From the NCBI GenBank assembly GCA_039714075.1, contig JBDLKA010000004.1, positions 3,087 through 67,086 on the forward strand: DNA of 64,000 bases, given 5' to 3'. The stretch's first letter is position 1, and every line of letters starts with the position of its first letter. Below, one piece after another: positions 1 to 44,856 of this stretch. Both the position numbers and the translations under genes were made by a program. The notes under the pieces were generated by a model, which was given only the letters and a program-made list of their open reading frames with translations, did not search any database and was not told the DNA's origin. This DNA is from Candidatus Krumholzibacteriota bacterium. GTDB taxonomy: Bacteria > Krumholzibacteriota > Krumholzibacteriia > LZORAL124-64-63.

Positions 1-1518
1 AAAACCGGCCATGCGGGGCGAGCGGATGCCGTAGGCACTGAGTACGGCAAAGGCATCCTCCTGCGTCAGGTAATTGTCCTTGCCACGATACTTCTCGATG
101 ATGACTTCGGCTGCCGCGCGATCGGTTTCCATATCGGACAGATCCTCGCGCACCCGTTCGCGCAGGCGGGCGTAGCGGTTCATGGCCGCCAGGGCCCGCG
201 CCCCGTCCTCGGCGAACTCGAACACCGGCAGATCGGCCGCCCGCAACTGGCCGATCAGGCGGTAGTTCTCGCTGTAGGTCTCCACCACCACGACCACGGG
301 CTTGTCCGACTCCTCGGTCGCCTCCTTGATGCGCCGGGCGATGGCGTCGATGTCCGTGAACGGCGCGGTCACGAAAAACACCATCACCATGTCCGTGTTT
401 TTCTCGGCCAGCAGGGTGCTGATCGCCGCGTGGTAATGATCCTGGTTCGCGGTGGCCACCACGTCGACCGGGTTGCCCAGACTAGCCTCGGCGAACTGTG
501 TTTCCTCCAACCGCTTCTTGCCTTCGTCCGACCACTTCGCCAGTTCCAGCCCCTGCCCAATGGATTCATCCACGGCCTGAATGCCCGGCCCACCCGTATT
601 GGTGATGATGCCGATGCGGTTGCCCGGCGGCGGATTCTGGGTGGACATGGCGATGGCGGCCTTGATCATTTCGTGCGTGTCGGTGAAGGGCACCACGCCC
701 GCCTTGCGGTACATGGCTTCGGCCATCTTCACCTGGTCGACCAGCGCCCCGGTGTGCGACGACACCGCTTTCGATCCTTCGGACGTTCGCCCGGCCTTGA
801 TGGCCAGAACGGGTTTGTGGGGCGTGATCTTTGCTGCCACTTCCAGGAACGCGCGCGGGTCCTTGAAGCTTTCGGTCTGCATCATGATCACGCGGGTGCC
901 TTCGTCCTGGCTGTAGTATTCCAGGATCTCGGGCATGGTCAGGTCGCACTCGTTGCCGTAGGAGCAGTACATGCGGTGCCCCAGGCCGACGTTGTGCAGG
1001 TGCAGTTTGAGCATCTCGCCCATGCCGCCGCCCTGGGCGATGATGGAAACATTACCCGGCTTCTGCGGCACGAAAGTGAAGTTGGCATACACCGATACTT
1101 CCGGGTCGGCGTTCTGGATGCCCTGGCTGTTCGGTCCGAAAATGCGGATGCCGTGCTTGTGCGCGGTCTCGACCATTTTCCGTTCGAGCTCGACTCCCTC
1201 GGGACCCACTTCCTTGAACCCCGCCGAGTGCACGATGGCGAACTTCACGCCCTTGGCCCCGCACTCTTCCAGCACCGCGGGCACGTACACGTTCTTGATG
1301 GAGATGTTCACCAGGTCGATGGTGTCGCAGGGCACGTCCAGGATCGACTTGTAGGCCTGGATGCTGCGAATGGTCCCCCCCTTGGGGTTGATGGGGAAAA
1401 CCGGTCCCACAAATCCGTAATTGGTCAGGTTCTTCACCACGATGTGACCGATGGAGTAGGGGTTTCCCGAAGCGCCGATCACACCCACGGCGCGGGGTCT
1501 GAACAATCCGTCGAGCAT
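1..1518 (-). CDS. Acyl-CoA synthetase (NDP/ADP-forming), acetate--CoA ligase family. Partial: N-terminal 506 aa; the C-terminus lies beyond the window start.
   Basis: Manual minus-strand translation from the ATG at 1518 gives MLDGLFRPRAVGVIGASGNPYSIGHIVVKNL... (CoA-binding domain), followed by succinyl-CoA-synthetase-like and ATP-grasp parts (..EVIIEKYRGKDNYLTQEDAFAVLSAYGIR..). No stop down to position 1. It is absent from the ORF track only because it runs off the edge. Confidence 0.8.
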   Translation of the reverse strand, partial: MLDGLFRPRAVGVIGASGNPYSIGHIVVKNLTNYGFVGPVFPINPKGGTIRSIQAYKSILDVPCDTIDLVNISIKNVYVPAVLEECGAKGVKFAIVHSAGFKEVGPEGVELERKMVETAHKHGIRIFGPNSQGIQNADPEVSVYANFTFVPQKPGNVSIIAQGGGMGEMLKLHLHNVGLGHRMYCSYGNECDLTMPEILEYYSQDEGTRVIMMQTESFKDPRAFLEVAAKITPHKPVLAIKAGRTSEGSKAVSSHTGALVDQVKMAEAMYRKAGVVPFTDTHEMIKAAIAMSTQNPPPGNRIGIITNTGGPGIQAVDESIGQGLELAKWSDEGKKRLEETQFAEASLGNPVDVVATANQDHYHAAISTLLAEKNTDMVMVFFVTAPFTDIDAIARRIKEATEESDKPVVVVVETYSENYRLIGQLRAADLPVFEFAEDGARALAAMNRYARLRERVREDLSDMETDRAAAEVIIEKYRGKDNYLTQEDAFAVLSAYGIRSPRMAGF

Positions 1519-1534
1519 GCCTGGTTCCTCTCTT

Positions 1535-2320
1535 TTACTTAGCGGTCGCCAATTTGCGGGCGGTCAGGGCGGCGCCCAACGCGCCTGTGAACTGGGGAGC
1601 TTCGGGCACGACCACATCGCGGCCCAGGCGCGAAGCCAAAATCTTCACGATGACCGGATTGTGCGCCACCACACCCCCGGTGGCCATGACCATCCCGTCC
1701 AGGGGATCCATTTCGACGATGCGGTCCACCACCGAAACGAAGGCCCCGCGCACGATGCCCTCCACGGGCGCACCCTGCCTCAGGTGGGACAGGATCTCGG
1801 TCTTGGCGAAAACCGTGCAGAAGCTGCCCAGGCGCACCGGTTCGTCGGTGCTCCCGGCCAGGGCGTCGAGCTCGGCCACATCCAGGTTCAAACGCAGGGC
1901 GATCTCCTCGATGAACGCGCCCGTACCGGCGGCGCACTTGCGGTTCATCTTGAACTCGCGGCGTTTCCCCTCGTCGTCCAGGTGGATGACCTTGTTGTCC
2001 TGGCCCCCGATGTCGACCACGGAAACCGCCTGCTGCGCGTGATGGAAGCAGCCGACACCGTGACAGTGGATCTCGGTGCGGGACTCGCCGGCAAAATCGA
2101 CATTCCTGCGTCCGTAGCCCGTGGAAACGGTCACCGCCGGCTCACCCGTCAGGCCAGCGGTTTTCAGGGCCTCGTCAAGACACTGGCGCGCGGTGCCGCG
2201 GTAATCGACACCGGAATGGCGCATGGCCCTGGCCAGCACCTGCCGGTCGCCATCCAGCAGGACCAGCTTGGTCGCCGACGCGCCGATATCCACGCCGCAA
2301 TAGAAGTTTCCCGTGGTCAT
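1535..2320 (-). CDS. BadF/BadG/BcrA/BcrD/HgdC-type ATPase (2-hydroxyacyl-CoA dehydratase activator-like, 261 aa)
   Basis: N-terminal GVDIGASATKLVLLD actin-like ATPase motif, ~260 aa, and conserved Cys (CAAGTGAF). Same strand as, and 8 nt from, the dehydratase-like subunit gene. Confidence 0.85.
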   Translation of the reverse strand: MTTGNFYCGVDIGASATKLVLLDGDRQVLARAMRHSGVDYRGTARQCLDEALKTAGLTGEPAVTVSTGYGRRNVDFAGESRTEIHCHGVGCFHHAQQAVSVVDIGGQDNKVIHLDDEGKRREFKMNRKCAAGTGAFIEEIALRLNLDVAELDALAGSTDEPVRLGSFCTVFAKTEILSHLRQGAPVEGIVRGAFVSVVDRIVEMDPLDGMVMATGGVVAHNPVIVKILASRLGRDVVVPEAPQFTGALGAALTARKLATAK

Positions 2321-2327
2321 GCTCCTA

Positions 2328-3572
2328 TCACCGGCCCTCTTCGATCTGCTCGACCAGGGCCTCGAACTGCGTGCGGGCCTGCTCTTCGGAGTACATCCGC
2401 AGATCGTTCAGGTCGCCGTTGATCGTCACGTAGGGCACGCCCGTCGCGCCGGTCATGCGTTGCGGCATTCCGTAGCGGCAATTCGAGTTGTTGGGGCAGG
2501 TCTTGGCGTCGTGGTAGATGATGCCGTCGATTCCGTAGGTCGCGAACATTTTCTTGAGGTAGTCCTCTTTGTAGTTCTCGCCGCGCACGATGAACAGTTC
2601 GGTGTAGCTGCGCGCCATGGCTTCGAAGGGATCGTCCAGGCCCATGGGCTCGAAGATCCAGCTGTTGCAGTAGGTCGACGCCACCACGCAGGCGTGCTGG
2701 CCGGCAAACTGTTCGGCGTGGTCGCGCAGCTTGCCCCAGACGGGCATGCCCTCCCAGTAGAAGCGCAGCTTTTCGTCCTCGACGGCGGCCACGCCGTCGG
2801 CGATGCGCTGCTCCAGTTCGGCGATCAGCACCGGGTAATATTCCTCGGCCGCGGCCGTGCCGCGCAGAACCACCGCCGGCCCCATGTGGATGGTGCAATC
2901 GAAGAACGAAATGGGGCTGGGCTGGTGGGCAGCCAGTTCCAGGACCCGTTTCCACAACAGGGTGCAGCGGTAGGACGAGGCCATCACTTCCTTCAAACGA
3001 TCCATATCGAATTTGCGGCCGGAAATCTCTTCAAGGGTCGGAATCAGGGCCTTGTGCTGATCGATCAACCCGTCCAGGTGGTCCTTGGTAATTTCCTCCA
3101 GCCCCCGCGGGGTATCGATACCGATCAAGGGCACATCCCACTCGCGCTGGTAGAACGCCAGCCAGTCCTGCACATCGCGGCACTGGTTGGTGTTGTAGAC
3201 CAGTACGTCCGCCTTGGGCACGCCCTTGATGCCGAAGGCCTTCATCAGGGGCGTCTGCTGCTTCAGGTACGAGCCCACGTCGCTGGTCAGGTACGAGCAG
3301 ATATCCGGCGAATACCCCCGGGCGTTGGCCGCGGGAATCAGGTCCGCCGCCACGCGCGACGAGCCCAGCACCGCACCGTGATTCTCGGGAAAATAGACCA
3401 GGAAACCGAAGGACCGCAGCAGTTCGGCCGGTCCCACGCTGGTGCACCAGGCGATCAGCGGGCGGTCCGAAGCGGTGGAGTTGGCGGCGGCGTCCAACTC
3501 GATGAAATGCTCGGCCATGAGTTTGCGCATCATGCCGGTGGCCTGGATTTTCTTGATGGGGGTGTCGCTCAC
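2328..3572 (-). CDS. 2-hydroxyacyl-CoA dehydratase / benzoyl-CoA reductase B/C-family subunit (HgdA/BcrB-like, YjiM-like); a lone subunit, 414 aa
   Basis: Clear paralogy to the BcrB-like protein at 14116..15426 (LMAEHF..LRSFGFLVYFPEN..YSPDICSY.. versus [27 protein letters not shown]..). It sits upstream of the activase gene on the same strand. Confidence 0.8.
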   Translation of the reverse strand: MSDTPIKKIQATGMMRKLMAEHFIELDAAANSTASDRPLIAWCTSVGPAELLRSFGFLVYFPENHGAVLGSSRVAADLIPAANARGYSPDICSYLTSDVGSYLKQQTPLMKAFGIKGVPKADVLVYNTNQCRDVQDWLAFYQREWDVPLIGIDTPRGLEEITKDHLDGLIDQHKALIPTLEEISGRKFDMDRLKEVMASSYRCTLLWKRVLELAAHQPSPISFFDCTIHMGPAVVLRGTAAAEEYYPVLIAELEQRIADGVAAVEDEKLRFYWEGMPVWGKLRDHAEQFAGQHACVVASTYCNSWIFEPMGLDDPFEAMARSYTELFIVRGENYKEDYLKKMFATYGIDGIIYHDAKTCPNNSNCRYGMPQRMTGATGVPYVTINGDLNDLRMYSEEQARTQFEALVEQIEEGR

Positions 3573-3714
3573 GGGGCAGTATCTCCTTGGGTGGGTCGGG
3601 AAAGAGGCATTCCGCGGATACTAGCATTGCGGGATATCCAGCGTCAATCGGCGGGCAATCACCCCATGAATCACAGTTGAATCACAAGGACCGAAACCGG
3701 TAGACTCCCGGCCC

Positions 3715-4125
3715 ATGACCACGATCTCGAGCAAAATCCCCCGCGAAACCCTGCGCGGTTACCTCTTCATCGTCTTGGCCGCCTTCTGCTGGGGCGGCAT
3801 CGGCCCGGTGTCCCGTTACGCGTTCGCCCAGGGCCTGGCGCCGTTCGTCCGGATCGAATTTCCCGCGCCACGGGCCCTGCTGGCGGTGATCTTTCTCGCG
3901 GTGATCTCCACCTTCGCCGCCTACTCCCTGAACTACGCGGGACTCAAGCGGCTGGAATCCTCACGCGCGGCGACCGTGGCCACCATAGAACCGGTCATCG
4001 CCGGAGCGGCGGCCTGGGTCTGGTGGGGGGAGACCTTCACTTTCTGGGGTTACCTGGGCAGCGGGCTGATTCTGCTGGGTGTGCTGCTGCTGATTACGTC
4101 TTCCTCAAAGGAAGGCGCAAGTTAG
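3715..4125 (+). CDS. EamA/DMT-family small membrane protein (136 aa), possibly a truncated remnant
   Basis: The N-terminus resembles EamA TM1 (LFIVLAAFCWGGIGPVSRYAF) and the C-terminus matches the end of an EamA domain (ATVATIEPVIAGAAAWVWWGETFTFWGYLGSGLILLGVLLL). The middle is too short for a canonical 10-TM DMT protein. Confidence 0.45.
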   Translation: MTTISSKIPRETLRGYLFIVLAAFCWGGIGPVSRYAFAQGLAPFVRIEFPAPRALLAVIFLAVISTFAAYSLNYAGLKRLESSRAATVATIEPVIAGAAAWVWWGETFTFWGYLGSGLILLGVLLLITSSSKEGAS

Positions 4126-4155
4126 CCACGCCTTAAGCTGAAACGGCGAGACGGA

Positions 4156-6405
4156 TTATTTGATCAAAACAAGTTTACGGGTCACGGCCCCGTCCACGGA
4201 CTGCAGCCGCGCGAAATACACCCCCGCCGAAACCAGCTGTCCGGTGTTGTCTTTTCCGTTCCAATGGACAACGTAGGAACCGGCCTCTCGATACTCCTCG
4301 ACCAGCGTGCGCACCTTGCGTCCGGCAGCGTCGTGAATCGAAAGGACGACCGGACCCGCTCGTTCCAGTCCGAATTGCATTTCGGTACGCGGGTTGAAGG
4401 GGTTCGGAAACGGGTTGTCCAACCACACCGCGGTCACCTTGTTGCCGGGCAGCAGATTGCCGTCCACCGGGGCGGGGTCCGAGCACTCCCGTCCCAGGAT
4501 CGTCAAGGTGCCGCCGAGCAAATACACATACCCGTGATCAACTTCGGCCTGCCATGCATAGGCACCGGAATGATAATCACCGAGCAGGACAGGCGCCGAT
4601 GGTGAATTCACGTCCACCACGATCATGCCGCTTTGGTATGCCGAAACGTAGGCGGTCTTGCCGTAGACCTCCACGTCCCGGCATCTCCCGAGAGGCAGCT
4701 GACCCACCAGAACAGGAAGATCCCACGAGGCAAGATCATAGATGGAAAGGCCTGTGTTTCCAACAAGATACAGATATCCGCCTGACGCCGTTCCATGGTA
4801 GATATCTTCCGGATGAGATACCGTTGAGACATGGACCGGGGCCAGCGGGGACGCCAGATCAAAAACCGAAATTTCGCCGCCAAAGGGATCGCCGCTTAAG
4901 GCGTAGAGGTGCCCGTCGAGGACGTCCAAAGCCGACAAGGAAAAGCCAAGGTGGTCTCCCACGGCAACCGGGGTATCCGGAATCGACAGATCGTAGACAC
5001 GGAAACCACTCGATTGGATTGCGTACAGGATATCGTCGACAACCAGGCCGTCCACGCGCATCTCGACATCGGTCGCCACGGGATCACCGGTCGGCCAGTG
5101 AAACGAGCCGAAAGTCGAGTGCAGGTATTCGCCATGAATGGCGAATCCAACTTCAAACATGGGTGTGCCGACATTTATAAAAAAACCATGTGAAAAAACA
5201 GGATTTTCGGGGTCACTCAGGTCGAAGACTTCGATAGCCCCGACATCGTACCATTCATCGGAAAGGTCCTCCAAAAAGAAGGCATTCGTGTCCGTAATCT
5301 TAAAGTCCACGGAGGGAATGGCACCCAGGATGTTCGCAGCCGGAGGAGGAACCGTCAGAAGACCTTCGTGATTAACGAGTCTCAGATTATCGAAATAGAG
5401 TAAGCGTTCTCCGACCACTTCCACATGGGCGTTGTCTGCGACTCCGATTCCGTAAACCCTTGTCCAGATTCCGTCAACTTCGGTCAGGTAGTTTACCGAA
5501 CCTTCGGATGGCGCATAGATCATCCCGTTCCCGATGGCAGGTTGGCCGACAATGGGCCGCCCGAAGCTGAAATCCCCCACCTCTTCAATGGCTGCCGGGT
5601 TGGAAAAATCCAGGATCTTCAGGACACTGCTAGAAAGAATGGATCCAAACTGAGAGGGAGGATACTGGTCCAAACGGGCCGCCACCGTCCCGCCTTCGGC
5701 GTCCAGGGCGTCGAACATTTGTCCGTTTGTGGGAGTGGCATAGGTTGTAAATTCACCAAGAAGTACGGGAACGGCCGGTGCCGAAAGATCGTAGGCCCGC
5801 AAAAAGCCCTCGGTTCCAAAGCGACCTCCAACGTACCAGACGCCCGCATCCTCGGCCACACTCAGGGCCCAGTCGACATCGGACAGGGAAACTTCCTCGA
5901 CAGGCGCCGTCGGATCGGAAATGTCGAAAAACCGGAAGCCGTCATCCAGGGCGGCAATGCAGGCAAGACCGCCGACCATCTCCTGATCGACGACTTCGGA
6001 GGCCGAGGCATTCTGCGATCGCTGAACCGGATGGTGCGGATTCGAAAAATCCACCAGCAGCCAGCCACAATTCACGGGATTCGAGGTCTTGAAACCGACG
6101 CTGACCAGGGAGCCCTCGCAGGCGAGGGATGTCGGCCATCCCGCCGAGGAATTGAAATCTCCCAGCACTTCCGGCGCGGCGGCAGGCAAGGCACGCCCCC
6201 AGACCAGGCGCAGACCCGTCCCTGAACCATCTCCGGTGGCGTAGCAGAAATAGTCACCGTCGACCGCCAGTATTTTGAACATGATGGTATCATCGGGAAT
6301 GCTGCCGATTTCGGCCGGCAATTGACCGTAGGGTGTACAATCCGGGGCACCTACAGCCACGGAAGAACAAATGGTCAGCAGGACTATCATGATTAGAGTT
6401 TTCAT
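4156..6405 (-). CDS. Secreted LVIVD-repeat beta-propeller protein with a T9SS type-A C-terminal sorting domain
   Basis: The ORF runs 4156..6450. The signal peptide MKTLIMIVLLTICSSVAVGA begins at M16 (6405). LVIVD-like repeats are present (AYVSAYQSGMIVVDVNSPSAPVLLG). C-terminus NPFNPRTEMQFGL..GVYFARLQSVDGAVTRKLVLIK. Confidence 0.75.
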   Translation of the reverse strand: MKTLIMIVLLTICSSVAVGAPDCTPYGQLPAEIGSIPDDTIMFKILAVDGDYFCYATGDGSGTGLRLVWGRALPAAAPEVLGDFNSSAGWPTSLACEGSLVSVGFKTSNPVNCGWLLVDFSNPHHPVQRSQNASASEVVDQEMVGGLACIAALDDGFRFFDISDPTAPVEEVSLSDVDWALSVAEDAGVWYVGGRFGTEGFLRAYDLSAPAVPVLLGEFTTYATPTNGQMFDALDAEGGTVAARLDQYPPSQFGSILSSSVLKILDFSNPAAIEEVGDFSFGRPIVGQPAIGNGMIYAPSEGSVNYLTEVDGIWTRVYGIGVADNAHVEVVGERLLYFDNLRLVNHEGLLTVPPPAANILGAIPSVDFKITDTNAFFLEDLSDEWYDVGAIEVFDLSDPENPVFSHGFFINVGTPMFEVGFAIHGEYLHSTFGSFHWPTGDPVATDVEMRVDGLVVDDILYAIQSSGFRVYDLSIPDTPVAVGDHLGFSLSALDVLDGHLYALSGDPFGGEISVFDLASPLAPVHVSTVSHPEDIYHGTASGGYLYLVGNTGLSIYDLASWDLPVLVGQLPLGRCRDVEVYGKTAYVSAYQSGMIVVDVNSPSAPVLLGDYHSGAYAWQAEVDHGYVYLLGGTLTILGRECSDPAPVDGNLLPGNKVTAVWLDNPFPNPFNPRTEMQFGLERAGPVVLSIHDAAGRKVRTLVEEYREAGSYVVHWNGKDNTGQLVSAGVYFARLQSVDGAVTRKLVLIK

Positions 6406-6680
6406 GGTGGGATATTCCCTTTCTTGGATATAATTTCTCCTATATAACACCTGGATTATCTTATCATTAATGAAAGATTGATGTCAAATGGATGCCATAG
6501 TTCATCAATTCCTCAAAAAGCTCCACCTGTTGCCGTCCCCAGGCAATTTTCCTGGCCGAAACACAGGTCACAATTCCAATGCCACAACCAATTCCTTGAA
6601 ATCCCCTCCCCGAAATGGGAGAATGATTTTTCGAAATCAGACTCGCCCATTCTGCCCCATATCATCCAAGGAGAACCCTC

Positions 6681-8648
6681 ATGATCGTCGGCGTCATCGG
6701 TTCCGGCTCCATCGGCCCGGACCTGGCCTATGGTTTTGTCTCCGCCCTGGCCAGCCACCCGGACAGCCGTGTCCTCCTTCACGACATCAAACCCGACGCC
6801 TTGGAGGCCGGCCTGGCCCGCATCCAGGGCTACGTGAAAAAGGGTGTCGATCGTGGCAAGCTCAGTCCCAAGGTGGCCGCGGCCATCGGTGACAAACTGG
6901 TCACGACGCTGGACCTTCCCGACCTGGCCGATTGCGATTACGTGCTCGAGGCCGCCACCGAGGATCTGGGGATCAAGAAGATCATCCTGGGCAACCTGGA
7001 AAAAGTCGTGCGGCCCGACTGCCTGATCGGCTTCGCCACCAGCGGCCTGCCGCGCGCGGTGATCGCCGCGGACACGAAACACCCCGAGCGCTGCTTCGTG
7101 AACCACCCCTTCTTTCCCGCCTGGCGCGCCATGCCCATCGAAGTCGTGCTGTCGGACCACGCCGAGTACAGCGAGCGCATGCTGACGACCTTGAAGCATC
7201 TTGGCAAAGTGCCGGTGATCACCGCCGACGTGCCGTGCTTCGCCGCCGACGACATCTTCTGCAACTACTGCGCCGAGGCCGCGCGCATCCACGTCGAAGG
7301 CGTGGCGTCGGTGTGGCAGGTGGACAAGATCGTCAACGACGCCATCGGCGGCGGTGGTCCCTTCAACGTCATGGACCTGACCCGCGGCAACCTGCTGAAC
7401 GTCAAATGCCTGAAGCTGATGGAAGAAGCCGAGACGGGCAGCGAATGGTTCGCCCCGCCCGAGGTCTTCTCCACCCAGGCCAACAATCCCTGGCTCGACC
7501 ACAAGAACCCCGGTGACCCGTCGTACAGCCCCGAACTGGGCCAGCAGGTGCTGGACCGCATCCTGGCCGTGCTATTGGGACGAACCTATTTCGTGGCCGA
7601 CAACGATATCTGCGACCCGGCGGACCTGAACTGGCTGACGAGCAACGCCCTCGGTTTCAGCAAGGGGCTGCTGGATCTGGCGGCCGAACTGGGCGCCGAC
7701 CGCGTGCACGAGATCTGCACCACCTACGCGGCCGCCAACCCCGGTTTCGAGGTGCCCAAAAGCATTAGCGACCGGGTGCTGCTGGATTTCAAGCGCAACC
7801 TGCAGATCGAGAAGGATGACACCATCGCCACGGTGACCATCAAGCGTCCCGAGGTGTTGAACGCGCTGAACGACCAGACCATGAACGAGTTGAACGCCAC
7901 CTTTGACGAACTGGAAGCCGACAACACGGTGGCCGGCATCGTGGTCACCAGTTACGGCGGCTCGCTGGCGGGCGCCGACATCAACGAACTGGCCGCCCTG
8001 CCCACGCCCGAAGAGGCGGCCGACAAGTGCCGCCGCGGGCACAAGATTCTGCGCCGGATCGAGAACTGCGCCAAGCCGGTGGTCATCGCCGTGAACGGTC
8101 CGGTGCTGGGCGGCGGCGCTGAACTGTCCATGGCCTGCCACGCGCGGGTCGTGGGCCCGGGCCTGATGCTTGGTCAGCCCGAAGTGAACCTGGGGATCAT
8201 CCCGGGTTACGGCGGCACCCAGCGGCTGCCCCGCCTGATCGGGGTGGAAAAAGCCGCGGAAATGGTGCGGACCGCCAATACCATCGGCGCCAAGGACGCC
8301 TGCGCCCTGGGTTGGGCGGTCGGTGAGCCCGCGACCTCTCCAGTCGCGGCGGCCAAGGATGTGATCAAGGCCCACCTGGACGGGTCGGCGCCCATCAAGC
8401 GTCTGGACACCGGACCCATGAAAGTGCCTGCAACATTGCCGGCCGTCGACATCGGCCACCGTTCCCTGGCCATCGACCGCATCCTGACCGATACCCTGTT
8501 CGCCGGACTGAAAACCGACCTGGACAGCGGTCTGGAGCTCGAAGCCGTGGCCTTCGCCCGCTGCAAGGGGACCGTCGATTACGACATCGGCATGACCAAT
8601 TTCATCCAGAACGGACCCCGGGTGCCCGCGGTCTTCATGAACGAATAA
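6681..8648 (+). CDS. Fused 3-hydroxyacyl-CoA dehydrogenase (N-terminal) / enoyl-CoA hydratase (C-terminal) bifunctional protein, 655 aa
   Basis: An N-terminal Rossmann motif VIGSGSIGPDLA (3HCDH family) and a C-terminal crotonase fold (VIAVNGPVLGGGAELSMACHARV). The domain order is the reverse of FadB/FadJ and matches the archaeal Hbd-Crt fusion type. Confidence 0.9.
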   Translation: MIVGVIGSGSIGPDLAYGFVSALASHPDSRVLLHDIKPDALEAGLARIQGYVKKGVDRGKLSPKVAAAIGDKLVTTLDLPDLADCDYVLEAATEDLGIKKIILGNLEKVVRPDCLIGFATSGLPRAVIAADTKHPERCFVNHPFFPAWRAMPIEVVLSDHAEYSERMLTTLKHLGKVPVITADVPCFAADDIFCNYCAEAARIHVEGVASVWQVDKIVNDAIGGGGPFNVMDLTRGNLLNVKCLKLMEEAETGSEWFAPPEVFSTQANNPWLDHKNPGDPSYSPELGQQVLDRILAVLLGRTYFVADNDICDPADLNWLTSNALGFSKGLLDLAAELGADRVHEICTTYAAANPGFEVPKSISDRVLLDFKRNLQIEKDDTIATVTIKRPEVLNALNDQTMNELNATFDELEADNTVAGIVVTSYGGSLAGADINELAALPTPEEAADKCRRGHKILRRIENCAKPVVIAVNGPVLGGGAELSMACHARVVGPGLMLGQPEVNLGIIPGYGGTQRLPRLIGVEKAAEMVRTANTIGAKDACALGWAVGEPATSPVAAAKDVIKAHLDGSAPIKRLDTGPMKVPATLPAVDIGHRSLAIDRILTDTLFAGLKTDLDSGLELEAVAFARCKGTVDYDIGMTNFIQNGPRVPAVFMNE

Positions 8649-8661
8649 ACGGGAGACGAGC

Positions 8662-9945
8662 ATGACCACGAACAGCAAATCCATCGTCATCCTGGACGGC
8701 GCGCGCCGGACGCCGAGGGCCGACATCCTGATCAACAACCGCGAACCCGGTCTGTTCTCGCGCTTTGCGACCACCGCCCTGGGCGGCATGGCCATCAGGG
8801 CCACCCTGAAAAATACGCCGCTGGACAAGGGATTGATCGGCCACGTCATCATGGGGATGGCCTCGCACAGCCATCGCGACAGCATCTACGCGGCCCAGGG
8901 CATGGCCTGGCGCGGCGGCCTGGCCGACGACGTGCCCGCCCTGACGGTGGCCCGCATCTGCGGCAGCGGCGCCGAAGCGGTGGCCGTGGGCATGGAGCAT
9001 ATCCTGGCCGGTATCCGGCACGACCGTGACCGGCCGTTCCTGGTTGTCGGCGGCGGCGAGAGCATGCAGTACCCCTTCAGCGTTTACGGCATGCGCGGCC
9101 AGAAAGTGGGTACGGCGATCCAGAAGTACGGACCGCTGGACCCGCGTGGTCTGCCCCGGGGGTCCATGCTTCAGGATTCCCTGTTGCTGGGCCTTTATGA
9201 TCCGGGCGCCAGCCTGGCCATGGCCAATACCGCCGAAGAACTGGGGCGGCGTTACGAAATCACCCGCGAAGAGGCCGACGCCTTCGGCCATCGCTCGCAC
9301 ATGAATGCCAAGGCTGCCCGTGACGAAGGATTGTTCGCCGAGGAGATCGAGCCGGTCACCCTGCCCGGCAGCGGCGGCGAGGCCGACGTCGTGGTCGAAC
9401 ACGACACCCATATCATGGACAACATCAGCCTGGCCAAGATGAGCCGCTTGTACCCGGCCTTCGAGGCGGGCGGCATCATCACCGCAGGCAACGCCAGCGC
9501 CGTGGTCGACGGCGCGGCGGCCATGGTGCTGGGCCTCGAGGACGATGCCAAGGCACACGGCCTGAAACCTTTGGCCCGGGTGGTCGCTGTCGGCACGGCG
9601 GCCTGCGATCCGCGGATCATGGGCTGGGGTCCGGTTCCAGCGACGCGCATCGCCCTGGAAAAGGCCGGCCTGGCCGGAAGCGACATCGACCACGTCGAAT
9701 TGAACGAAGCCTTCGCGCCCCAGGCCCTGGCCTGCATACGGGACTTTGCCGACATGGGCATCGATCCGGAGAAGGTCAACCCGCAGGGCAACGCCATCGC
9801 GCTGGGCCATCCCCTGGGCGCGACCGGAGCCATCCTGACCCTGACCTGCGCCTACGCCCTGCGGCGCAAGGGCCAACGCTACGGTCTGGTCACGATGTGC
9901 ATCGGCGGGGGGCAGGGAAATTCGCTGGTCATCGAGTCCTTGTAG
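8662..9945 (+). CDS. Acetyl-CoA C-acyltransferase (thiolase)
   Basis: Thiolase signatures: VARICGSGAEAV (active Cys), NEAFAPQALAC, GHPLGATG, and CIGGGQG near the C-terminus. Lies 13 nt downstream of the dehydrogenase/hydratase gene. Confidence 0.92.
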   Translation: MTTNSKSIVILDGARRTPRADILINNREPGLFSRFATTALGGMAIRATLKNTPLDKGLIGHVIMGMASHSHRDSIYAAQGMAWRGGLADDVPALTVARICGSGAEAVAVGMEHILAGIRHDRDRPFLVVGGGESMQYPFSVYGMRGQKVGTAIQKYGPLDPRGLPRGSMLQDSLLLGLYDPGASLAMANTAEELGRRYEITREEADAFGHRSHMNAKAARDEGLFAEEIEPVTLPGSGGEADVVVEHDTHIMDNISLAKMSRLYPAFEAGGIITAGNASAVVDGAAAMVLGLEDDAKAHGLKPLARVVAVGTAACDPRIMGWGPVPATRIALEKAGLAGSDIDHVELNEAFAPQALACIRDFADMGIDPEKVNPQGNAIALGHPLGATGAILTLTCAYALRRKGQRYGLVTMCIGGGQGNSLVIESL

Positions 9946-9978: not shown

Positions 9979-10395
9979 ATGTCCTTGTCCTACCATTGCC
10001 CCAATTGCGACAGCCTGCTGAATCCCAACGTGCGCGTGGTGCTCATCGCCCGCTACGGTGAAAAACAGGGCATCGTCCTTATGAGTTCGAAGCCCGGGGA
10101 CTACCAGGTCATCTGCGACAAGGGCTTGTGTCACGACGTGGCCAAAGGGGATGTCGTCGATTTCAGCTGCCCGGTCTGCCACGGGTCGCTGACCTCGGAG
10201 TCCCATGACCACTTTGCCGAACTCAAGGTCGTGAACTCGCAAAAGGAAGGGCACGAACCCTGCCTGCTGCGCTTCAGCCGGGTCAGCGAAGAGCATGCGA
10301 CGTTCCTGTACGACGGGGACTCGGTGAAGGAGTTCGGGGAAGAGGCGGGACTTTTCAGTAAAGAGATGACGATCGAAGGGGACTGGGGCTGGTAG
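9979..10395 (+). CDS. Small Cys-rich hypothetical protein (two CxxC pairs, Zn-ribbon-like), 138 aa
   Basis: CPNC at residues 7-10 and CPVCH at 64-68. Same strand as, and 33 nt downstream of, the thiolase gene. No recognisable family. Confidence 0.5.
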   Translation: MSLSYHCPNCDSLLNPNVRVVLIARYGEKQGIVLMSSKPGDYQVICDKGLCHDVAKGDVVDFSCPVCHGSLTSESHDHFAELKVVNSQKEGHEPCLLRFSRVSEEHATFLYDGDSVKEFGEEAGLFSKEMTIEGDWGW

Positions 10396-12732
<2,337 letters not shown>

Positions 12733-12836
12733 GGTTTGCCTCTCTGGTGTTGCCCGACACCGTCCCACGATAGTCCGGGAGAGAAACAAAAACAACCGTC
12801 AGCTGCGGCCCTTTGTCCGGCTTTGTCCACATTCTC

Positions 12837-12925: not shown

Positions 12926-14119
12926 ATGACAAAGGATTCTCCCGTGACCCCTTCCCCCCGCACCCAGATCGTCGACTGGGCCACCGAAATCTACGAAGAC
13001 CTGGATTTCACCGCGTCCCGGCAGTGGCTGGACGACCACCCGGGCAGCAAGGCCGCCGGGTTCCTGCCCGTCTACGCCCCCAAGGAGATCATCCATGCCG
13101 CGGGCATGCTGCCGGTGGGCATCCACGGCAACGGGGCCATCGAGATCATCCGCGGCGACGCCTACTACCAGAGCTATATCTGCCATCTGCCCCGGTCGGT
13201 GGTCGAATTCGCGGAATCCGGCCGCCTGGATTTCCTGTCGGCGGCCTTGTTTCCCTCGACCTGCGACGTGATCCGCAACCTGTCCGGCATGTGGCAGGTC
13301 ATGTTCCCGGAGATGTACGTGCGCTACCTCGACCTGCCCCAGGTGGCGGATCCGGAACTCGGCGCCAGGTTCTGGCAGCGGGAACTGAACGTGATCCGGG
13401 AGGAACTGGGCCGCGTGGCCGATGTGAACATCACCGATGACCGGCTGCGGGCGTCGGTCGCGGTGTACAACGAGGTGCGCGAGGTCATCGGCCAGTTATA
13501 TGGCCTGCGCAACAAGCAACCCTGGAAGGTGCCCACCGAAGAATTATACCTGCTGCTGCGGGCAGGGGAAGTCGTGGCGCCGGAAGTCTTCATGGAGAAG
13601 GCCCGCGCCTACCTGCAGGCCGCCGAAAACAGCGACGATCCCCTCAAGGACCGCACCCGGGTGATCATCGTGGGCTCGTTCTGCGAACAGCCGCCCCTCG
13701 GGCTGATCAAGACCATCGAACGCGCCGGCTGCTACATCGTCGACGACGATTTCCTGGCCGGTAACCGCTTCCTTACCAACGCCGTGCCCGTCGCAGGTGA
13801 TCCCGCGGAAAACCTGGCCACTACGTTCACCAGCAGCGCCGTCAAGACCTCGGTCCTGTACGAACCGGATCCCGACGGCAAGAAGAACCTGATGCAGCAG
13901 CGCGCCAAGGCCGCCGGCGCCGACGGCATCATTTTCTGCGCCGCCAGTTTCTGCGATCCCGCCCTGCTGGACAGGCCCATGCTGCGCGACGGGGCCGAAC
14001 AGGCCGGCATCCCCTGCATCGCCTTCAAGTTCGCCGAGAACTCGGGGCAGTTCCAGCAGTTCCGCGAGCAGGCGGGCACCTTCAGCGATTCGATCAAACT
14101 GTGGGGAGAGGCGTCATGA
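12926..14119 (+). CDS. Benzoyl-CoA reductase / 2-hydroxyacyl-CoA dehydratase family subunit, BcrC/BadD/HgdB-like (397 aa)
   Basis: First gene of a 4-gene cluster with sizes 397/437/426/290 aa, matching BcrC/B/A/D. C-terminal Cys-containing motifs. The stop overlaps the next start (ATGA). An alternative GTG start lies 18 nt downstream, after AAGGA. Confidence 0.8.
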   Translation: MTKDSPVTPSPRTQIVDWATEIYEDLDFTASRQWLDDHPGSKAAGFLPVYAPKEIIHAAGMLPVGIHGNGAIEIIRGDAYYQSYICHLPRSVVEFAESGRLDFLSAALFPSTCDVIRNLSGMWQVMFPEMYVRYLDLPQVADPELGARFWQRELNVIREELGRVADVNITDDRLRASVAVYNEVREVIGQLYGLRNKQPWKVPTEELYLLLRAGEVVAPEVFMEKARAYLQAAENSDDPLKDRTRVIIVGSFCEQPPLGLIKTIERAGCYIVDDDFLAGNRFLTNAVPVAGDPAENLATTFTSSAVKTSVLYEPDPDGKKNLMQQRAKAAGADGIIFCAASFCDPALLDRPMLRDGAEQAGIPCIAFKFAENSGQFQQFREQAGTFSDSIKLWGEAS

Positions 14120-15426
14120 GCGACCAGAAAACAGACATCCGCCAGGCCCAGAAGGACGATTCGATGATCATCCAGAAAGAGATGATCGCCGAGCACTACA
14201 AGCGGCTCGAGCGGGCGCCCGAAACCAAGGAACCGGTGGTCTACACCTTCGTGCCCGGCAACCTGACCGAGCTCATCCGCTCGTTCGGCTGCCTGCCCGT
14301 GCTGCCGGAGATCAACGCCCTGCAGTCGGGCATGCGGGGAAAAAGCCGCGAATATATCGCCGAAGCCGAAAAGCGCGGGCACTCCGAGGACGTCTGCACC
14401 TACGTCAAGTGCGACATCGGCATGGCCATGGCGGGCAACATCGGCCCCACCGGCACCAAGCTGCCCAAGCCCGACCTGCTGCTGCTCTCGTACACCGGCT
14501 GCTACACCTTCATGAAATGGTTCGAACTGCTGCGCGAGGAATACGATTGCCCCTGTGTTTTCCTGCACGTGCCCTACCAGGGCGAAGGCAACATCGAACC
14601 CGAGCACCGGGACTACATGATCAAGCAGATCAAGGAAGAGGTCATTCCCGCGCTGGAGAAAATATCCGGCCGCAAGTACGACGAGGATGCCCTGAAGGAG
14701 CGACTGCGGTTGAGCGTGCAGGCCGAGGACGATCTGGTCTGGGTGCTGCAGTCCGCCATGAAAAAACCCTCGCCCATCGACGCCTACTTCGGCGCCGTGT
14801 ATTACGTGGGTCCGATCTTCAGCGCCTTCCGCGGCACCGAAGAAGGCGTCAATTATTACCAGGCGCTGCGCCGCGAAGTGCAGGGACGCCTGGATGCCGG
14901 GCTGGGTCCGGTCGCTCCCAAGGGTCCCATGGCCGAGGAGAAATACCGCCTGGTGGTCGAAGGCCCGCCCAACTGGACGCACTTCCGCGAGTTCTGGCAG
15001 ATGTTCGCCGACGAGGGCGCGGTGGTGGTGGCCTCGACCTACAGCAAGGTCGGCGGCACCTACGATTTCGGTTTCCGGCACAACCCGGATGACCCCCTGG
15101 GCACCATGGGCGACTACTGCGCCGGCTGCTACACCAACCACAACCTGCCCGGCCGCATCGACATGCTGTGCCAGTACCTGAAGGATTACGAGGCTGACGG
15201 GTTTTTGATCAACTCCGTCAAGTCGTGCAACTCGTTCAGCGCCGGCCAGTTGATGATCCTGCGCGAGGTCGAGAAACGCACCGGCCTGCCGGGCGGTTTC
15301 ATCGAATCGGACCTTGTTGATCCGCGCTACTTCTCGGCCGCCAACATCAAGAATCGCCTGGAGAGTTACCTGCAGATGGTCGAAGCCCGCCGCGCCGGCG
15401 CTTCGCAGAAAGGCCTGTCCGCATGA
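14116..15426 (+). CDS. Benzoyl-CoA reductase / 2-hydroxyacyl-CoA dehydratase family subunit, BcrB/BadE/HgdA-like (437 aa)
   Basis: The ORF runs 14101..15426. An ATG at 14116 overlaps the upstream stop. Paralogous to 2328..3572. Conserved Cys-rich stretches ([33 protein letters not shown]). 4-nt overlap with the next gene. Confidence 0.8.
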
Positions 15427-16703
15427 GCATCGCCTGTGTTGTCGGGACGGACCTCGGTTCGACCACCACCAAGTCGGTCATCCTCGATGGTGACGGAAAC
15501 ATTCTCGGGCGCGGCATCACCAACAGCCGCTCCGATTACGATCGCGCGGCCAAGGTCTCGCGCAGCGAAGCCTTCATCACCGCGCGCTTCAACCTGCTCC
15601 AGCGCGAGGTTGAACAGGCCGCCGGACCCGAGGTGCTTCAGCGTCTACTGGACGCCTTCCGGCTCGAGCAGACCCTCGCCCAGCTCGACCGGTTGCACCA
15701 ACTTGTGTCCGGCGCCCTGGCCTTCGGCGTGCCCGGTGACCTGAGCGTCGCGGCCACCGAAGCCGTGAAAACCATCGTCACCCGTATCCAGCAAAGCGAA
15801 CTGAAACGTTTCGAGGATCCTAATCCGCCCAAGCGCTCGGACTTCTTCCGCGACACCGTGGGTTCGGCCTGGAGCACCATCAGCGAAGAGATCGGCGATC
15901 CGGCGGGCGTTAGCTTCGACATGCTGCTCGGCCTGTACGACAAGTGCATCATCCAGGTCGAGAACGAACCGCTGGCCCTGGGCTTCGGCGATCATATCGA
16001 AAACGCCCTGGAGCGCATCGGCGGTTCCGAAGCCGTCAAGACCGGGGTGCGCCACGCCGTCGAGGCCGAATTCGACGTGCGCGGGGAAGTGGGCACCGGT
16101 TACGGCCGGCAGCGCCTGCCCTTCCCCAAGGAGATGATCCGTTCGGAAATCCTCTGCCACGGCCTGGGCGCTTCGATCATGTTCGGCGGCACCCGCACCG
16201 TGCTGGACATCGGCGGCCAGGACACCAAGGCCATTCAGGTCGACGAGAACGGCATCGTGACCAGCTTCCAGATGAACGACCGGTGCGCCGCCGGTTGCGG
16301 ACGGTACCTGGGCTACATCGCCGACGAGATGAACCTCGGGCTGCACGAACTGGGACCTTTGGCCCAGGAAAGCACCCGCACGGTGAAGATCAACTCCACC
16401 TGCACCGTTTTCGCCGGGGCCGAACTGCGCGAGCGCCTGTCCCTGGGCGAAAAACGCGAGGACATCCTGGCCGGCCTGCACCGCGCGATCATGCTGCGGG
16501 CCATGAGCCTGCTGGCCCGCTCGGGCGGCGTCGAGGACGAGTTCACCTTCACCGGCGGCGTGGCCAACAATCCGGCCGCGGTGTCGGCTCTGCGCGAACT
16601 GGTGACCGAAAACTACGGGGACAAGGTTCTGAACATTTCCCCGGACAGCATCTACACCGGCGCCCTGGGCGGCGCCATTTTCGCCCACAGGAGCGCGAAC
16701 TGA
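15423..16703 (+). CDS. BcrA/BadF-like ATPase subunit (long BadF/BadG/BcrA/BcrD-family ATPase with an insertion, 426 aa)
   Basis: N-terminal [17 protein letters not shown] and a second half carrying CAAGCGRYL and TGGVANN. Its length, insertion and position match the alpha subunit of class-I benzoyl-CoA reductases. Confidence 0.85.
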
Positions 16704-23093: not shown

Positions 23094-23272
23094 CCCAGAG
23101 CATGATATTCCGCTCGAAAGTGGTATTTCGAGCTCGATTCATATCATATCATACTAATATGTATTTGTTAAGAAAGGGGCGCTATGCACTCCGACTGGCC
23201 GATTTGAGACATTTTTGATATTAATTGGTGGGTTCCAGGCGTTACCGCTCATTCCTGAATTCTGGAGACCCT

Positions 23273-27925: not shown

Positions 27926-28254
27926 GCGATTTCCTCCCCGCCGACGGACCTGCCGGCAAGTTCGTTTTCCTTACCGGTACACTTGTGGTTGTAGATGAGG
28001 GCCATCACCAGAGCCAGGACGATCAGCCCCATCCCGTAGACAACGGCGAGGTTCAAACCCATGAAGACGATGACCTGCATGACTTTGCCCTCGGCCACAA
28101 CGTTGGCCAGGACAAAACCCACGTACACGACGCAGTAGATGAGGAACATCACTACGCCCAGGCGAGTCTTGTAATTGCTCGCCGGATCAGGTCCGGATTC
28201 GGGGGCGGGTCCCTGGTGCATGACTTCCTCCTGGGGAAGGGGGCCGGGGCTCAA
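27922..28254 (-). CDS. yjcH: DUF485 family inner membrane protein (YjcH-like), 110 aa
   Basis: Two TM helices, ~110 aa, with a 4-nt overlap onto the ActP start. This is the characteristic partner gene of actP. Confidence 0.8.
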   Translation of the reverse strand: MSPGPLPQEEVMHQGPAPESGPDPASNYKTRLGVVMFLIYCVVYVGFVLANVVAEGKVMQVIVFMGLNLAVVYGMGLIVLALVMALIYNHKCTGKENELAGRSVGGEEIA

Positions 28255-28464
28255 GGACCGCTACGTGCGGCCCATCAAGGGTGATGGCGACGAAATTAAT
28301 ACCCCGTTAAATGAATAACAAATAAAATGAAAGTTAAATTTCTGTTGGGTGTATTTTCTGGTTCCATAGGCAAATACGGAAATTGCTGGTGGGCAAACCG
28401 CCGGTTGGAAGGCTCCCCTGCATCGGTTATTATTACCAAGCATTTCTCCCGAACCGGAGTTCTC

Positions 28465-44620: not shown

Positions 44621-44856
44621 GGTCAACCCCCGAACAATTTGAATGGAATATGAAGCAGAACCCGATGTTGCCAAACCGAAGGGTGATTATACCTCATATC
44701 CTACCGAAAGTAAATGAGTTGGAAGGGAAAACCCGATTGATATTTCCGGCTGGAACTCGAGACATGGACTTGCCGGCAGACCCGGTTTATAGTTAAATTG
44801 GATCTTTTTACTCTTGGTTGTCCGGTTTTCAGAACACCTTCCCAAGGAGACGAACA

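Follow-up and report, generated by a model that had tools for sequence, protein, structure and literature searches.

The first 3572 nt of the 64,000-nt stretch of DNA from a Candidatus Krumholzibacteriota bacterium analyzed here (contig JBDLKA010000004.1; the whole stretch is referred to as the window) carry three genes that behave as a conserved operon, encoding a lone catalytic subunit of 414 aa, an activase and an ADP-forming acyl-CoA synthetase of the ACD type. The 414-aa protein is an alpha-type catalytic subunit of the benzoyl-CoA reductase/2-hydroxyacyl-CoA dehydratase (BCR/HAD) family of radical enzymes, whose characterized CoA-ester-converting members are alpha/beta heterodimers (PMC11971306). 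A 2025 structural paper gives the known architectures of this family as the homodimeric double-cubane proteins, the heterodimeric BzdNO and HadBC enzymes and the single-domain TudS proteins, to which a partner-less alpha type does not belong (PMC11971306). The three-gene module is widespread, strongly conserved and tied to anaerobic aromatic catabolism. We give even chances to the reading that it constitutes a 2-hydroxyacyl-CoA dehydratase, probably homodimeric and likely acting on aryl-lactates, which would feed a beta-oxidation round leading to benzoyl-CoA. The aromatic nature of the substrate is a more tentative part of this reading, and we rate it somewhat below even.

The genes of the trio are co-oriented on the minus strand, as described in an earlier interpretation made from the DNA alone (the sequence-only reading), and are flanked as follows:

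2328-3572, minus strand: 414-aa alpha-type (HadB/BcrB/BzdO-like) HGD-D catalytic subunit; GTG start; Pfam PF06050, 221 bits, full length
1535-2320, minus strand: 261-aa HgdC/HadI-type ATP-dependent activator (archerase); TIGR00241, 210 bits (cutoff 125)
1-1518, minus strand: 506 N-terminal residues of an acyl-CoA synthetase/ligase (ADP-forming, NDP-forming type) that runs off the window start; CoA_binding_2, Succ_CoA_lig and Ligase_CoA_2 domains
3618-3647, minus strand: weak promoter-like site (TTGACG, 18-nt spacer, TAGTAT, with TG) 5' of the 414-aa gene
3715-4125, plus strand: EamA half-transporter gene, divergent from the trio and the next gene past the intergenic region

The gaps within the trio are 7 and 16 nt. 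The values of 8 and 17 nt reported before reflect a different way of counting, and the tight spacing itself stands. The 142-nt region upstream of the 414-aa gene (3573-3714) is intergenic and the gene beyond it, located on the other strand, is unrelated, both as had been proposed. This region contains one weak promoter-like site. Because two such sites were found where 1.0 was expected by chance, the promoter evidence alone is not significant, and the site at 3618-3647 is weak evidence for a putative operon start. No second HGD-D gene flanks the 414-aa gene within the window.

Several comparisons assign the 414-aa protein to the alpha type. Among curated models it matched HadB best (225 bits, end to end), followed by BcrB (153 bits), BzdO (80 bits) and the double-cubane model (56 bits), and it matched none of the NCBIfam models for beta subunits (HadC, BcrC, BzdN). 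All of these scores are below the NCBIfam/TIGRFAM equivalog cutoffs, which are 750 bits for HadB (NF052455), 487 for BcrB (TIGR02260), 449 for TIGR03191 (the 80-bit match) and 350 for the double-cubane proteins (NF040772). A phmmer search against the PDB gave the same ranking, with HadB (E 1.6e-49) preceding MbdO (1.1e-33) and BzdO (5.5e-20). We then used Foldseek to compare an AlphaFold2 single-chain model of the protein (pLDDT 85.6, pTM 0.87) with solved structures. The closest was the HadB alpha subunit (TM-score 0.89, rmsd 2.3 A, 30% identity), followed by MbdO and BzdO (0.82-0.84), whereas the double-cubane cluster protein (DCCP; 0.67-0.74) and the beta subunits HadC, MbdN and BzdN (0.66-0.70) were more distant. 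The predicted fold consists of two alpha/beta domains with a helical insert, which is the HGD-D fold. The relationship with the window's own BcrB, which had been noticed before, was recovered by BLAST (29% identity over 437 aa, E 1e-46), and no significant relation to the window's BcrC was found by the same method.

Residue conservation was determined from an alignment of 84 orthologues with HadB, MbdO, BzdO and the window's BcrB. In BzdO, the [4Fe-4S] cluster responsible for catalysis is ligated by C95, C128 and C380 (PMC11971306). The corresponding residues of the 414-aa protein, C92, C131 and C359, are invariant in all 84 orthologues, as are E63 (E65 in BzdO), W42 (W46), Y94 (Y97) and Y301 (Y298). 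The three cysteines and E63 align with their equivalents in HadB, BcrB, MbdO and BzdO. The invariance of the cluster ligands and of the other four residues demonstrates that the 414-aa protein is not a decayed copy, and the degraded pseudo-paralogue that had been raised as an objection is thereby ruled out. At position 134 the protein has a Val, like HadB, where BzdO has the catalytic His131. We considered this position as a discriminator between reductases and dehydratases and rejected it, because Thauera-type BcrB and MbdO have a Phe there, so that it is not diagnostic for reductases in general.

Besides the cluster ligands, three further cysteines are nearly invariant, namely C43 (84/84), C203 (83/84) and C302 (83/84). 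The double-cubane motif against which the protein was tested is CX19CX18-19CX29CX166-170CX32-34CX32C, six of whose cysteines serve as ligands of the [8Fe-9S] cluster. In a profile alignment to E. coli YjiM, a 7-Cys double-cubane protein (PMC7317905), residues C43, C92, C131, C302 and C359 fall on motif positions 1, 3, 4, 5 and 7, with C43 aligning with YjiM C40 and C302 with YjiM C273, whereas ordinary alpha subunits retain only positions 3, 4 and 7. A full double-cubane site was nevertheless rejected, since only five of the seven motif cysteines are present and positions 2 and 6 lack a Cys. C43 directly follows the conserved Trp and C302 directly follows the thioester-binding Tyr, two residues that border the cavity formerly occupied by the second sub-cluster (PMC11971306). 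The additional cysteines could be relics, could serve as catalytic thiols, or could bind a further cofactor making up for the absent beta subunit. In addition, four polar residues beside the cluster ligands (R132, D133, N361 and N362) are invariant and replace the residues found in HadB, BcrB and MbdO.

The 261-aa protein is a classical activase, as originally proposed. Its best PDB matches were HadI (4eht, E 3e-48), then MbdQ and then HgdC, and its bridging-cluster cysteines, C129 in the motif KCAAGTG and C168 in the motif FCTVF, align with those of HadI. The activator of the trio is thus a single HadI/HgdC-type gene and not a BcrA/BcrD-type pair.

The synthetase matched TIGR02717 with 415 bits and has its phospho-histidine, His255, in the motif SSHTGAL. 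Since the window copy is cut at the window start, and exact-sequence look-ups with the 414-aa and 261-aa proteins gave no match by which the contig could be extended, the part beyond residue 506 was judged from orthologues that are 70-89% identical over the 506 residues present. The full length had been expected to tell an ACD enzyme from a Pat-like protein, which would carry a C-terminal GNAT domain. These orthologues are 692 aa long, have a C-terminal ATP-grasp_5 domain and contain no GNAT domain, and therefore the synthetase is of the ACD type. An assignment as Pat acetyltransferase was rejected; alignment with the structures of Pat, 9isq and 9it0 (877-886 aa), is limited to residues 2-686, the ACD part. 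The best PDB match was the ADP-forming 4-hydroxybutyrate-CoA ligase 8wzu, end to end (E 7e-112), followed by a 3-hydroxypropionate-CoA ligase (9y43). With these ligases and ACD 4xyl the synthetase shares the fused alpha-beta order, the phospho-histidine and the length of about 692 aa. Unlike the named ACD ligases, however, it misses all equivalog cutoffs, so that the NCBIfam equivalogs are uninformative for its substrate, and the same applies to the symporter and the hydratase/dehydrogenase described below; for the substrate of the thiolase the equivalogs were no more informative. In 30 loci of related genomes, a sodium:solute symporter gene lies directly 3' of the synthetase gene, which speaks for uptake and activation of an acid rather than for ATP recovery. 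The sequence-only reading had assigned ATP recovery to the synthetase; this direction is possible, but the symporter and the hydroxyacid-CoA ligase homologues make it less likely than substrate activation. The trio's own symporter gene should lie beyond the window start.

The distribution of the module was analyzed in two ways. A homologue scan covering one genome per species yielded more than 580 confirmed matches to the 414-aa protein. The best 80 of these are 61-88% identical to it and belong to Acidobacteriota (including Thermoanaerobaculia and Aminicenantes), Desulfobacterota (Geobacter-like bacteria, Desulfuromonadales, Desulfomonile, Syntrophaceae and Desulfatirhabdium), Myxococcota, Zixibacteria, Planctomycetota, Bacteroidota and unclassified lineages. 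None of the 120 best clusters at 90% identity falls below 71% identity to the 414-aa protein, and orthologues across Acidobacteriota, Desulfobacterota, Myxococcota, Zixibacteria, Planctomycetota and other phyla are 61-94% identical. G. metallireducens GS-15 lacks catalytic HGD-D genes. The 414-aa protein belongs to an independent, very strongly conserved family that is present in many genomes without a nearby Bcr, and the idea that the trio is a reduced second module of the window's benzoyl-CoA reductase had to be abandoned.

Second, 83 genome loci were surveyed. Open reading frames (ORFs) were called and compared with the window proteins, all ORFs of the 83 loci were clustered, and the recurrent families were annotated; the flanks examined extend 8-10 kb. 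Adjacency was counted only in loci with enough flank (65 for the activase, 56 for the synthetase). An activase gene lies within 1.5 kb of the HGD-D orthologue in 61/65 loci and the synthetase gene adjoins in 47/56, in agreement with the operon that had been suggested. The trio co-occurs across many anaerobic phyla, in the order HGD-D, activase, synthetase in most of them and in the order activase, HGD-D, synthetase in Desulfobacterota.

The survey also bears out that the catalytic subunit is alone. Any other HGD-D gene was present in only 8 of the 83 loci, and in 75 no beta-type gene was found in the operon or within 8 kb. Among the 35 loci whose flanks reach 7 kb or more in both directions, another HGD-D gene was found in 4 and none in 31. 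The extra HGD-D genes form clusters of their own that include an activase; these are either BCR-like four-gene sets or contain a paralogue fused to an ApbA domain. A second catalytic subunit gene past the synthetase had been named beforehand as the finding that would speak against a lone subunit; in that position the relatives carry the symporter gene, and a few (L001, L007 and apparently L008) have the fused paralogue, which lacks the cluster cysteines, 5-8 kb away on the other strand. Full-text literature searches returned no description of a homodimeric or single-subunit 2-hydroxyacyl-CoA dehydratase, nor of an ADP-forming ligase coupled to a radical dehydratase-type enzyme.

The fusion protein, about 760 aa long and with an N-terminal ApbA/PanE ketoreductase domain, is the nearest paralogue of the 414-aa protein, to which it is 35-41% identical. 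It was found within 8 kb of the 414-aa orthologue in four loci:

L001, 17388-19139, minus strand: ApbA-HGD-D fusion paralogue
L007, 8741-10549, minus strand: ApbA-HGD-D fusion paralogue
L020, 746-3034, plus strand: ApbA-HGD-D fusion paralogue
L027, 4726-7008, plus strand: ApbA-HGD-D fusion paralogue

In L001 and L007 the fusion gene is 5-8 kb away on the opposite strand, and this apparently also holds for L008, where the locus ends at the accompanying activase. The fusion paralogue keeps its own activase; its neighbour in L001 is a dehydrogenase that passes the equivalog for 6-hydroxycyclohex-1-ene-1-carbonyl-CoA dehydrogenase (Had; 443 bits), and its neighbour in L007 is from the same cluster of Zn-dehydrogenases. 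In L020 the fusion gene is part of the same operon as the 414-aa orthologue and shares its single activase. In the fusion paralogues, C92 is replaced by N or S and C131 by G, and C359 is lost in two of the four. Judging from these replacements, the protein may be a cluster-less pseudo-subunit or scaffold.

The closest known systems are the (R)-2-hydroxyisocaproyl-CoA dehydratase HadBC of Clostridioides difficile with its activator HadI (3o3m, 4eht) and its relatives HgdAB/HgdC, FldBC/FldI and LcdAB/LcdC. The 414-aa protein resembles HadB in its alpha fold, the three [4Fe-4S] cysteines, the Glu/Trp/Tyr set and the Val at the position of BzdO His131, and the activator of the trio resembles HadI in being a single homodimer-type ATPase with both bridging cysteines. 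Unlike the HadBC systems, however, the trio lacks a beta subunit of the HadC type ([4Fe-5S]) and a family-III CoA-transferase gene (HadA/FldA/GctAB), in whose stead it contains the ADP-forming ligase. The protein itself differs from HadB by its three extra near-invariant cysteines and by the polar residues flanking the cluster ligands, and the hosts differ from the clostridial amino-acid fermenters in being respiring or syntrophic anaerobes in which the genetic context is oxidative (beta-oxidation and the benzoyl-CoA pathway).

With the class I benzoyl-CoA reductases (BcrCBAD, BzdNOPQ and MbdONQP; 8s02, 9g87, 9gai) the trio shares the radical family, the alpha architecture and the clustering with benzoyl-CoA genes. 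It differs from them in that it lacks a double-cubane subunit of the BcrC/BzdN type and has one small activator gene instead of two ATPase subunits; moreover, His131 of BzdO is not conserved, and the scores of the 414-aa protein on the BcrB and BzdO equivalogs are far below the cutoffs. The third comparison concerns DCCP of Carboxydothermus hydrogenoformans (6eno) and the E. coli pair YjiM-YjiL, which likewise consist of one HGD-D gene and one activase gene. DCCP is a homodimer, and hence a precedent for a partner-less family member. The sequence-only reading had called the pair of lone subunit and activase YjiLM-like, which holds for the arrangement alone and is wrong at the level of the family. 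YjiM scores 531 bits on NF040772, with the beta-type models HadC and BzdN coming next, whereas the 414-aa protein lacks the motif cysteines C2 and C6, scores far below the cutoff of that model and has a fold nearer to the alpha subunits. BLASTP between the two proteins gave 19% identity in the C-terminal half only (E 0.003).

The link with aromatic catabolism emerges from the gene neighbourhoods. On the opposite strand to the trio, the window contains the following genes for beta-oxidation and for a class I benzoyl-CoA reductase:

6681-8648, plus strand: 655-aa fused 3-hydroxyacyl-CoA dehydrogenase/enoyl-CoA hydratase; Pfam 3HCDH_N and ECH_1
8662-9945, plus strand: 427-aa thiolase (acetyl-CoA C-acyltransferase); Thiolase_N and Thiolase_C; TIGR01930, 348 bits, above cutoff
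9979-10395, plus strand: 138-aa protein outside all Pfam families, with the two CxxC pairs CPNC and CPVC
12926-14119, plus strand: BcrC, class I benzoyl-CoA reductase; TIGR02263, 484 bits (cutoff 421)
14101-15426, plus strand: BcrB; TIGR02260, 678 bits (cutoff 487)
15423-16703, plus strand: BcrA; TIGR02259, 552 bits, slightly below the cutoff of 578
16700-17575, plus strand: BcrD; Pfam BcrAD_BadFG

The 138-aa protein is kept between thiolase and BcrC in all close relatives, and may be a zinc-ribbon protein assisting either the thiolase or the reductase. In L085-L087, the closest relatives at 87-88% identity, the trio and its symporter are divergent from one co-directional string of genes in the order hydratase/dehydrogenase (655 aa), thiolase (427 aa), 138-aa CxxC protein, BcrC, BcrB, BcrA and BcrD. 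The order in the window is the same, broken at 3573-6680, which carries the EamA half-transporter and a type IX secretion system (T9SS) LVIVD protein, and at 10396-12795, which carries a PAS hybrid histidine kinase. With GC contents of 0.567 and 0.594, respectively, vs 0.63-0.65 in the flanking genes, these segments look like insertions into a catabolic supercluster. No Dch, Had, Oah, ferredoxin or KGOR genes accompanying Bcr were found within the 64-kb window.

Among the 83 loci, the recurrent neighbours include thiolase (27 loci), 3-hydroxyacyl-CoA dehydrogenase, fused or separate (24), crotonase-type hydratases (18, plus 10 of a 376-aa type) and acyl-CoA dehydrogenase (10). The hydratase/dehydrogenase gene is directly divergent from the HGD-D orthologue in L004-L009 and L085-L087, and in L048, L060 and L074 the thiolase, crotonase and 3-hydroxyacyl-CoA dehydrogenase genes are directly 3' of the ligase gene. 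In most lineages the hydratase, dehydrogenase and thiolase genes are adjacent or divergent. A 2-oxoacid reductase gene of the ApbA/PanE type adjoins in 16 loci, and a domain of this type is fused to the closest paralogue in 4; in L034, a 2-hydroxyacid dehydrogenase of the Ldh_2 family is encoded directly upstream. These neighbours match the gene context of 2-hydroxyacyl-CoA dehydratases, in which a 2-oxoacid reductase acts before and an enoyl-CoA consumer after the dehydration. Zn-dependent dehydrogenases are present in 17 loci, and 4 of 5 tested representatives pass the Had equivalog. The ring-opening hydrolase Oah is present in 10 loci (554-710 bits, cutoff 464), and Oah, Had and dienoyl-CoA hydratase (Dch) equivalogs above cutoff are located beside the trio in Zixibacteria, Aminicenantes-type and Desulfobacterota loci. 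Three other families recur: a Mo-hydroxylase made of three subunits, the large one being closest to the alpha subunit of 4-hydroxybenzoyl-CoA reductase (8 loci), PaaK-like ligases (7 loci), and an indolepyruvate:ferredoxin oxidoreductase (5 loci, IOR-alpha equivalog).

The locus of a Desulfuromonadaceae bacterium (L074, 346-17218) illustrates this context. It encodes, in order, NuoE/F/G-like (BamG/H/I-like) proteins, a 4HBT thioesterase, Oah, Had, Dch (an equivalog match), the activase, the HGD-D protein, the synthetase, a thiolase, a crotonase, a 3-hydroxyacyl-CoA dehydrogenase, a CoA-transferase and PaaK, and by its gene content reads as a benzoyl-CoA cluster with an embedded trio. Canonical benzoyl-CoA reductases are encoded beside the trio as BcrCBAD in the window, L008 and L085-L087, and as BamG/H/I-like proteins in L074.

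The proposed dehydratase pathway would proceed as follows. A carboxylic acid would be imported by the symporter and activated to its CoA ester by the ADP-forming ligase at the cost of one ATP converted to ADP. The acid would be an (R)-2-hydroxy acid, or a 2-oxo acid that is then reduced by the ApbA/PanE-type reductase. The 414-aa protein would act without a beta subunit, most likely as a homodimer, after the activator has primed it with one low-potential electron driven by ATP, and would convert the 2-hydroxyacyl-CoA into (E)-2-enoyl-CoA and water via a ketyl radical, with the electron being recycled. The hydratase/dehydrogenase and the thiolase would carry the enoyl-CoA through one round of beta-oxidation. 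With aryl-lactates, phenyllactyl-CoA would be converted via cinnamoyl-CoA to benzoyl-CoA together with acetyl-CoA, and benzoyl-CoA would then be reduced by Bcr. The ApbA reductase would form the 2-hydroxy compound from an arylpyruvate; IorAB and PaaK may represent a parallel arylacetate branch, and the Hcr-like enzyme may serve for tyrosine-derived 4-hydroxybenzoyl-CoA. Aryl-lactates are the favoured substrates because in the lineage of the window the two beta-oxidation genes are in one operon with BcrCBAD, and because in other phyla the trio lies beside Dch, Had, Oah, IorAB, PaaK and Hcr-like genes. A recent study (2026) on a benzene-degrading sulfate reducer proposed the route from phenylpyruvate via phenyllactyl-CoA and cinnamoyl-CoA to benzoyl-CoA, in which the dehydration is assigned to "a yet unassigned dehydratase", and mentions a "singular" FldB-like gene in that genome (PMC13416013).

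Several observations weigh against this proposal. The 414-aa protein is nearly equidistant from HadB (30% identity) and the window's BcrB (29%), and E63, W42, Y94 and Y301 are common to dehydratases and reductases and so do not separate the two chemistries. All characterized 2-hydroxyacyl-CoA dehydratases are alpha/beta heterodimers (PMC11971306), and a functional lone alpha subunit is without precedent; the partner search covers the 8-10 kb flanks rather than whole genomes. The ApbA reductase and the dehydratase would act consecutively only if CoA ligation precedes keto reduction. The invariant residues R132, D133, N361 and N362, judged by their polar nature, may hint at a polar or carboxylated rather than an aryl substrate. 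In some lineages (Desulfomonilaceae) the pair occurs in an unrelated setting from which the ligase is missing. Finally, beta-oxidation genes are common in these genomes, and hence part of the association could be background.

It is unlikely, in our view, that the pair is instead a minimal homodimeric ATP-dependent reductase which dearomatizes or dehydroxylates benzoyl-CoA or a substituted or heteroaromatic analogue, the ligase activating an imported aromatic acid. Such a function would suit the Aminicenantes-type and Zixibacteria loci L045, L041 and L070, where an operon with the ligase, symporter, Oah, Had and lower-pathway genes has no canonical BCR within 8 kb and the HGD-D and activase genes are the only ones without a role, all genes of a benzoate pathway other than the reductase being located around the pair, and also L074, where Oah, Had and Dch are encoded directly upstream of the activase and the HGD-D protein. 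The near-equal similarity to BcrB and HadB and the presence of C43 and C302 at two further double-cubane motif positions point the same way. Organisms with several BCR isoenzymes for analogues are known (MBR, 4-methyl-BCR). Nonetheless, dehydratase chemistry is favoured over reduction by the closer similarity in sequence and fold to HadB and of the activase to HadI, by the single activator gene in place of a BcrA/BcrD pair, and by the lack of a double-cubane subunit, as class I BCRs are thought to need an [8Fe-9S] partner to accumulate two electrons (PMC11971306). It is further favoured by the canonical reductase genes that adjoin the trio wherever the flanks reach far enough (the window, L008, L085-L087 and L074), by the adjacent 2-oxoacid/2-hydroxyacid dehydrogenases, which a reductase would leave unexplained, and by the energy economy expected of the strict anaerobes carrying the trio, for which stoichiometric ATP use would be costly. 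A dehydratase with a non-aromatic substrate, converting for example (R)-2-hydroxyglutaryl-CoA into glutaconyl-CoA or lactyl-CoA into acrylyl-CoA, we hold to be improbable. The co-location could then be explained by the common glutaconyl/crotonyl-CoA lower benzoyl-CoA pathway or by a propionyl-CoA route, and the crotonase, 3-hydroxyacyl-CoA dehydrogenase and thiolase suit crotonyl-CoA oxidation equally well. The four polar invariant residues beside the cluster ligands also fit such a substrate, as do the AcuI-type acrylyl-CoA reductase gene after the symporter in L001 and the Geobacter-type loci, which have an upstream acyl-CoA dehydrogenase (the representative from L045 matches models for glutaryl-CoA dehydrogenase and for acryloyl-CoA reductase) along with a carboxyltransferase and a biotin-carrier/PYC_OADA protein. 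However, the carboxyltransferase is present in 3-4 loci only, with a weak match to the methylmalonyl-CoA decarboxylase alpha model (131 bits vs a cutoff of 999), and the IorAB, PaaK and Hcr-like neighbours indicate aryl substrates. Moreover, in the lineage of the window the beta-oxidation genes share an operon with BcrCBAD rather than with Dch/Had/Oah/Gcd, which suits side-chain shortening to benzoyl-CoA better.

Two other explanations concern the subunit composition and the role of the synthetase. That the 414-aa subunit forms a heterodimer with an HGD-D protein encoded elsewhere, which could be the neighbouring BcrC, the product of an unlinked beta-type gene or the ApbA-HGD-D fusion, has a low probability. 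In its favour, no characterized alpha subunit does without a beta partner, the flanks examined span 8-10 kb, fusion paralogues occur within 8 kb in four loci, and the one of L020 is in an operon with a single activase. Against it stand the 31 of 35 well-flanked loci without another HGD-D gene, the identity of 61-94% combined with a dedicated activator, which suggests a self-sufficient unit, and the fusion paralogues themselves, which, having lost C92 and C131 and in half of the cases C359, are unable to supply a beta-type cluster. Pairing with the window's BcrC was rejected, as it has no sequence-level or contextual support and most loci lack a nearby Bcr. Far less probable still is the original interpretation as a YjiLM-like pair that would transform a CoA ester by radical chemistry, while the synthetase would regain ATP from the resulting CoA ester. 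The combination of one HGD-D and one activase does resemble yjiM-yjiL, acetyl-CoA would come from the adjacent beta-oxidation, and ACD enzymes can run in the ATP-forming direction. However, YjiM is a beta-type double-cubane protein with 19% identity over half of the 414-aa protein, and both the downstream symporter and the solved structures closest to the synthetase speak for the ligase direction.

In the heterodimers, passing on or storing the activated electron is the presumed task of the beta cluster ([4Fe-5S] or [8Fe-9S]). If the conserved alpha subunit indeed functions without a partner, the electron relay would be dispensable or supplied otherwise. It is possible, though doubtful, that with the 414-aa protein the BCR/HAD family has its first alpha-type member that is homodimeric and self-sufficient, carrying out low-potential radical chemistry on an aromatic CoA ester with the help of a one-gene activator; its retention of five of the seven double-cubane cysteine positions would make it an evolutionary intermediate between the homodimeric double-cubane proteins and the heterodimers. 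Such an enzyme could be the "missing" aryl-lactyl-CoA dehydratase through which aromatic amino acids or phenylpyruvate reach benzoyl-CoA in anaerobes that do not ferment, or, more radically, an ATP-dependent aroyl-CoA reductase of a third, minimal type. A self-sufficient alpha subunit would also provide a simpler system for mechanistic studies and biotechnology, for example for making enoyl-CoA or cinnamate with two proteins and an energy-saving ADP-forming ligase. The module is widespread and is located in benzoyl-CoA pathway clusters, and may thus represent an unrecognized entry of aromatic amino acids, phenyl-lactate or phenylpyruvate into anaerobic aromatic degradation. The anaerobic benzene degradation study cited above names this step as one without an assigned dehydratase (PMC13416013).

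A different arrangement was observed in six Desulfomonilaceae-type loci (L035, L038, L058, L069, L071 and L076), in which the HGD-D gene occurs without an ACD gene and is directly followed by the activase gene where the flank is visible. In all six, a gene for a spermidine-synthase-like protein of 515 aa precedes the HGD-D gene; ahead of it lies mostly a DUF4178 protein gene, and in some loci also genes for a pyrroline-5-carboxylate reductase and a TusA/DsrE protein. This context suggests a different use of the pair in that lineage.

The rest of the window (17.6-64 kb) encodes kinases, secreted T9SS proteins and transporters, and nothing related to the trio. Three large Ser/Thr protein kinases (896, 776 and 915 aa) are encoded in a row at 18072-25972, two of them with PD40/WD40-like beta-propeller repeats. 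The region 26054-30528 encodes a 623-aa solute:sodium symporter, unrelated to the symporter of the trio, beside a Cache/PAS-DUF294 putative nucleotidyltransferase sensor. T9SS-type secreted proteins with FlgD_ig or Por_Secre_tail C-termini, which suggest a host resembling the FCB group, are encoded at 4156-6450, 33874-35778, 38886-41885, 43193-44674, 45937-49284 and 49298-51376, and this set includes LVIVD-repeat, FG-GAP, laminin-G and endonuclease I types.

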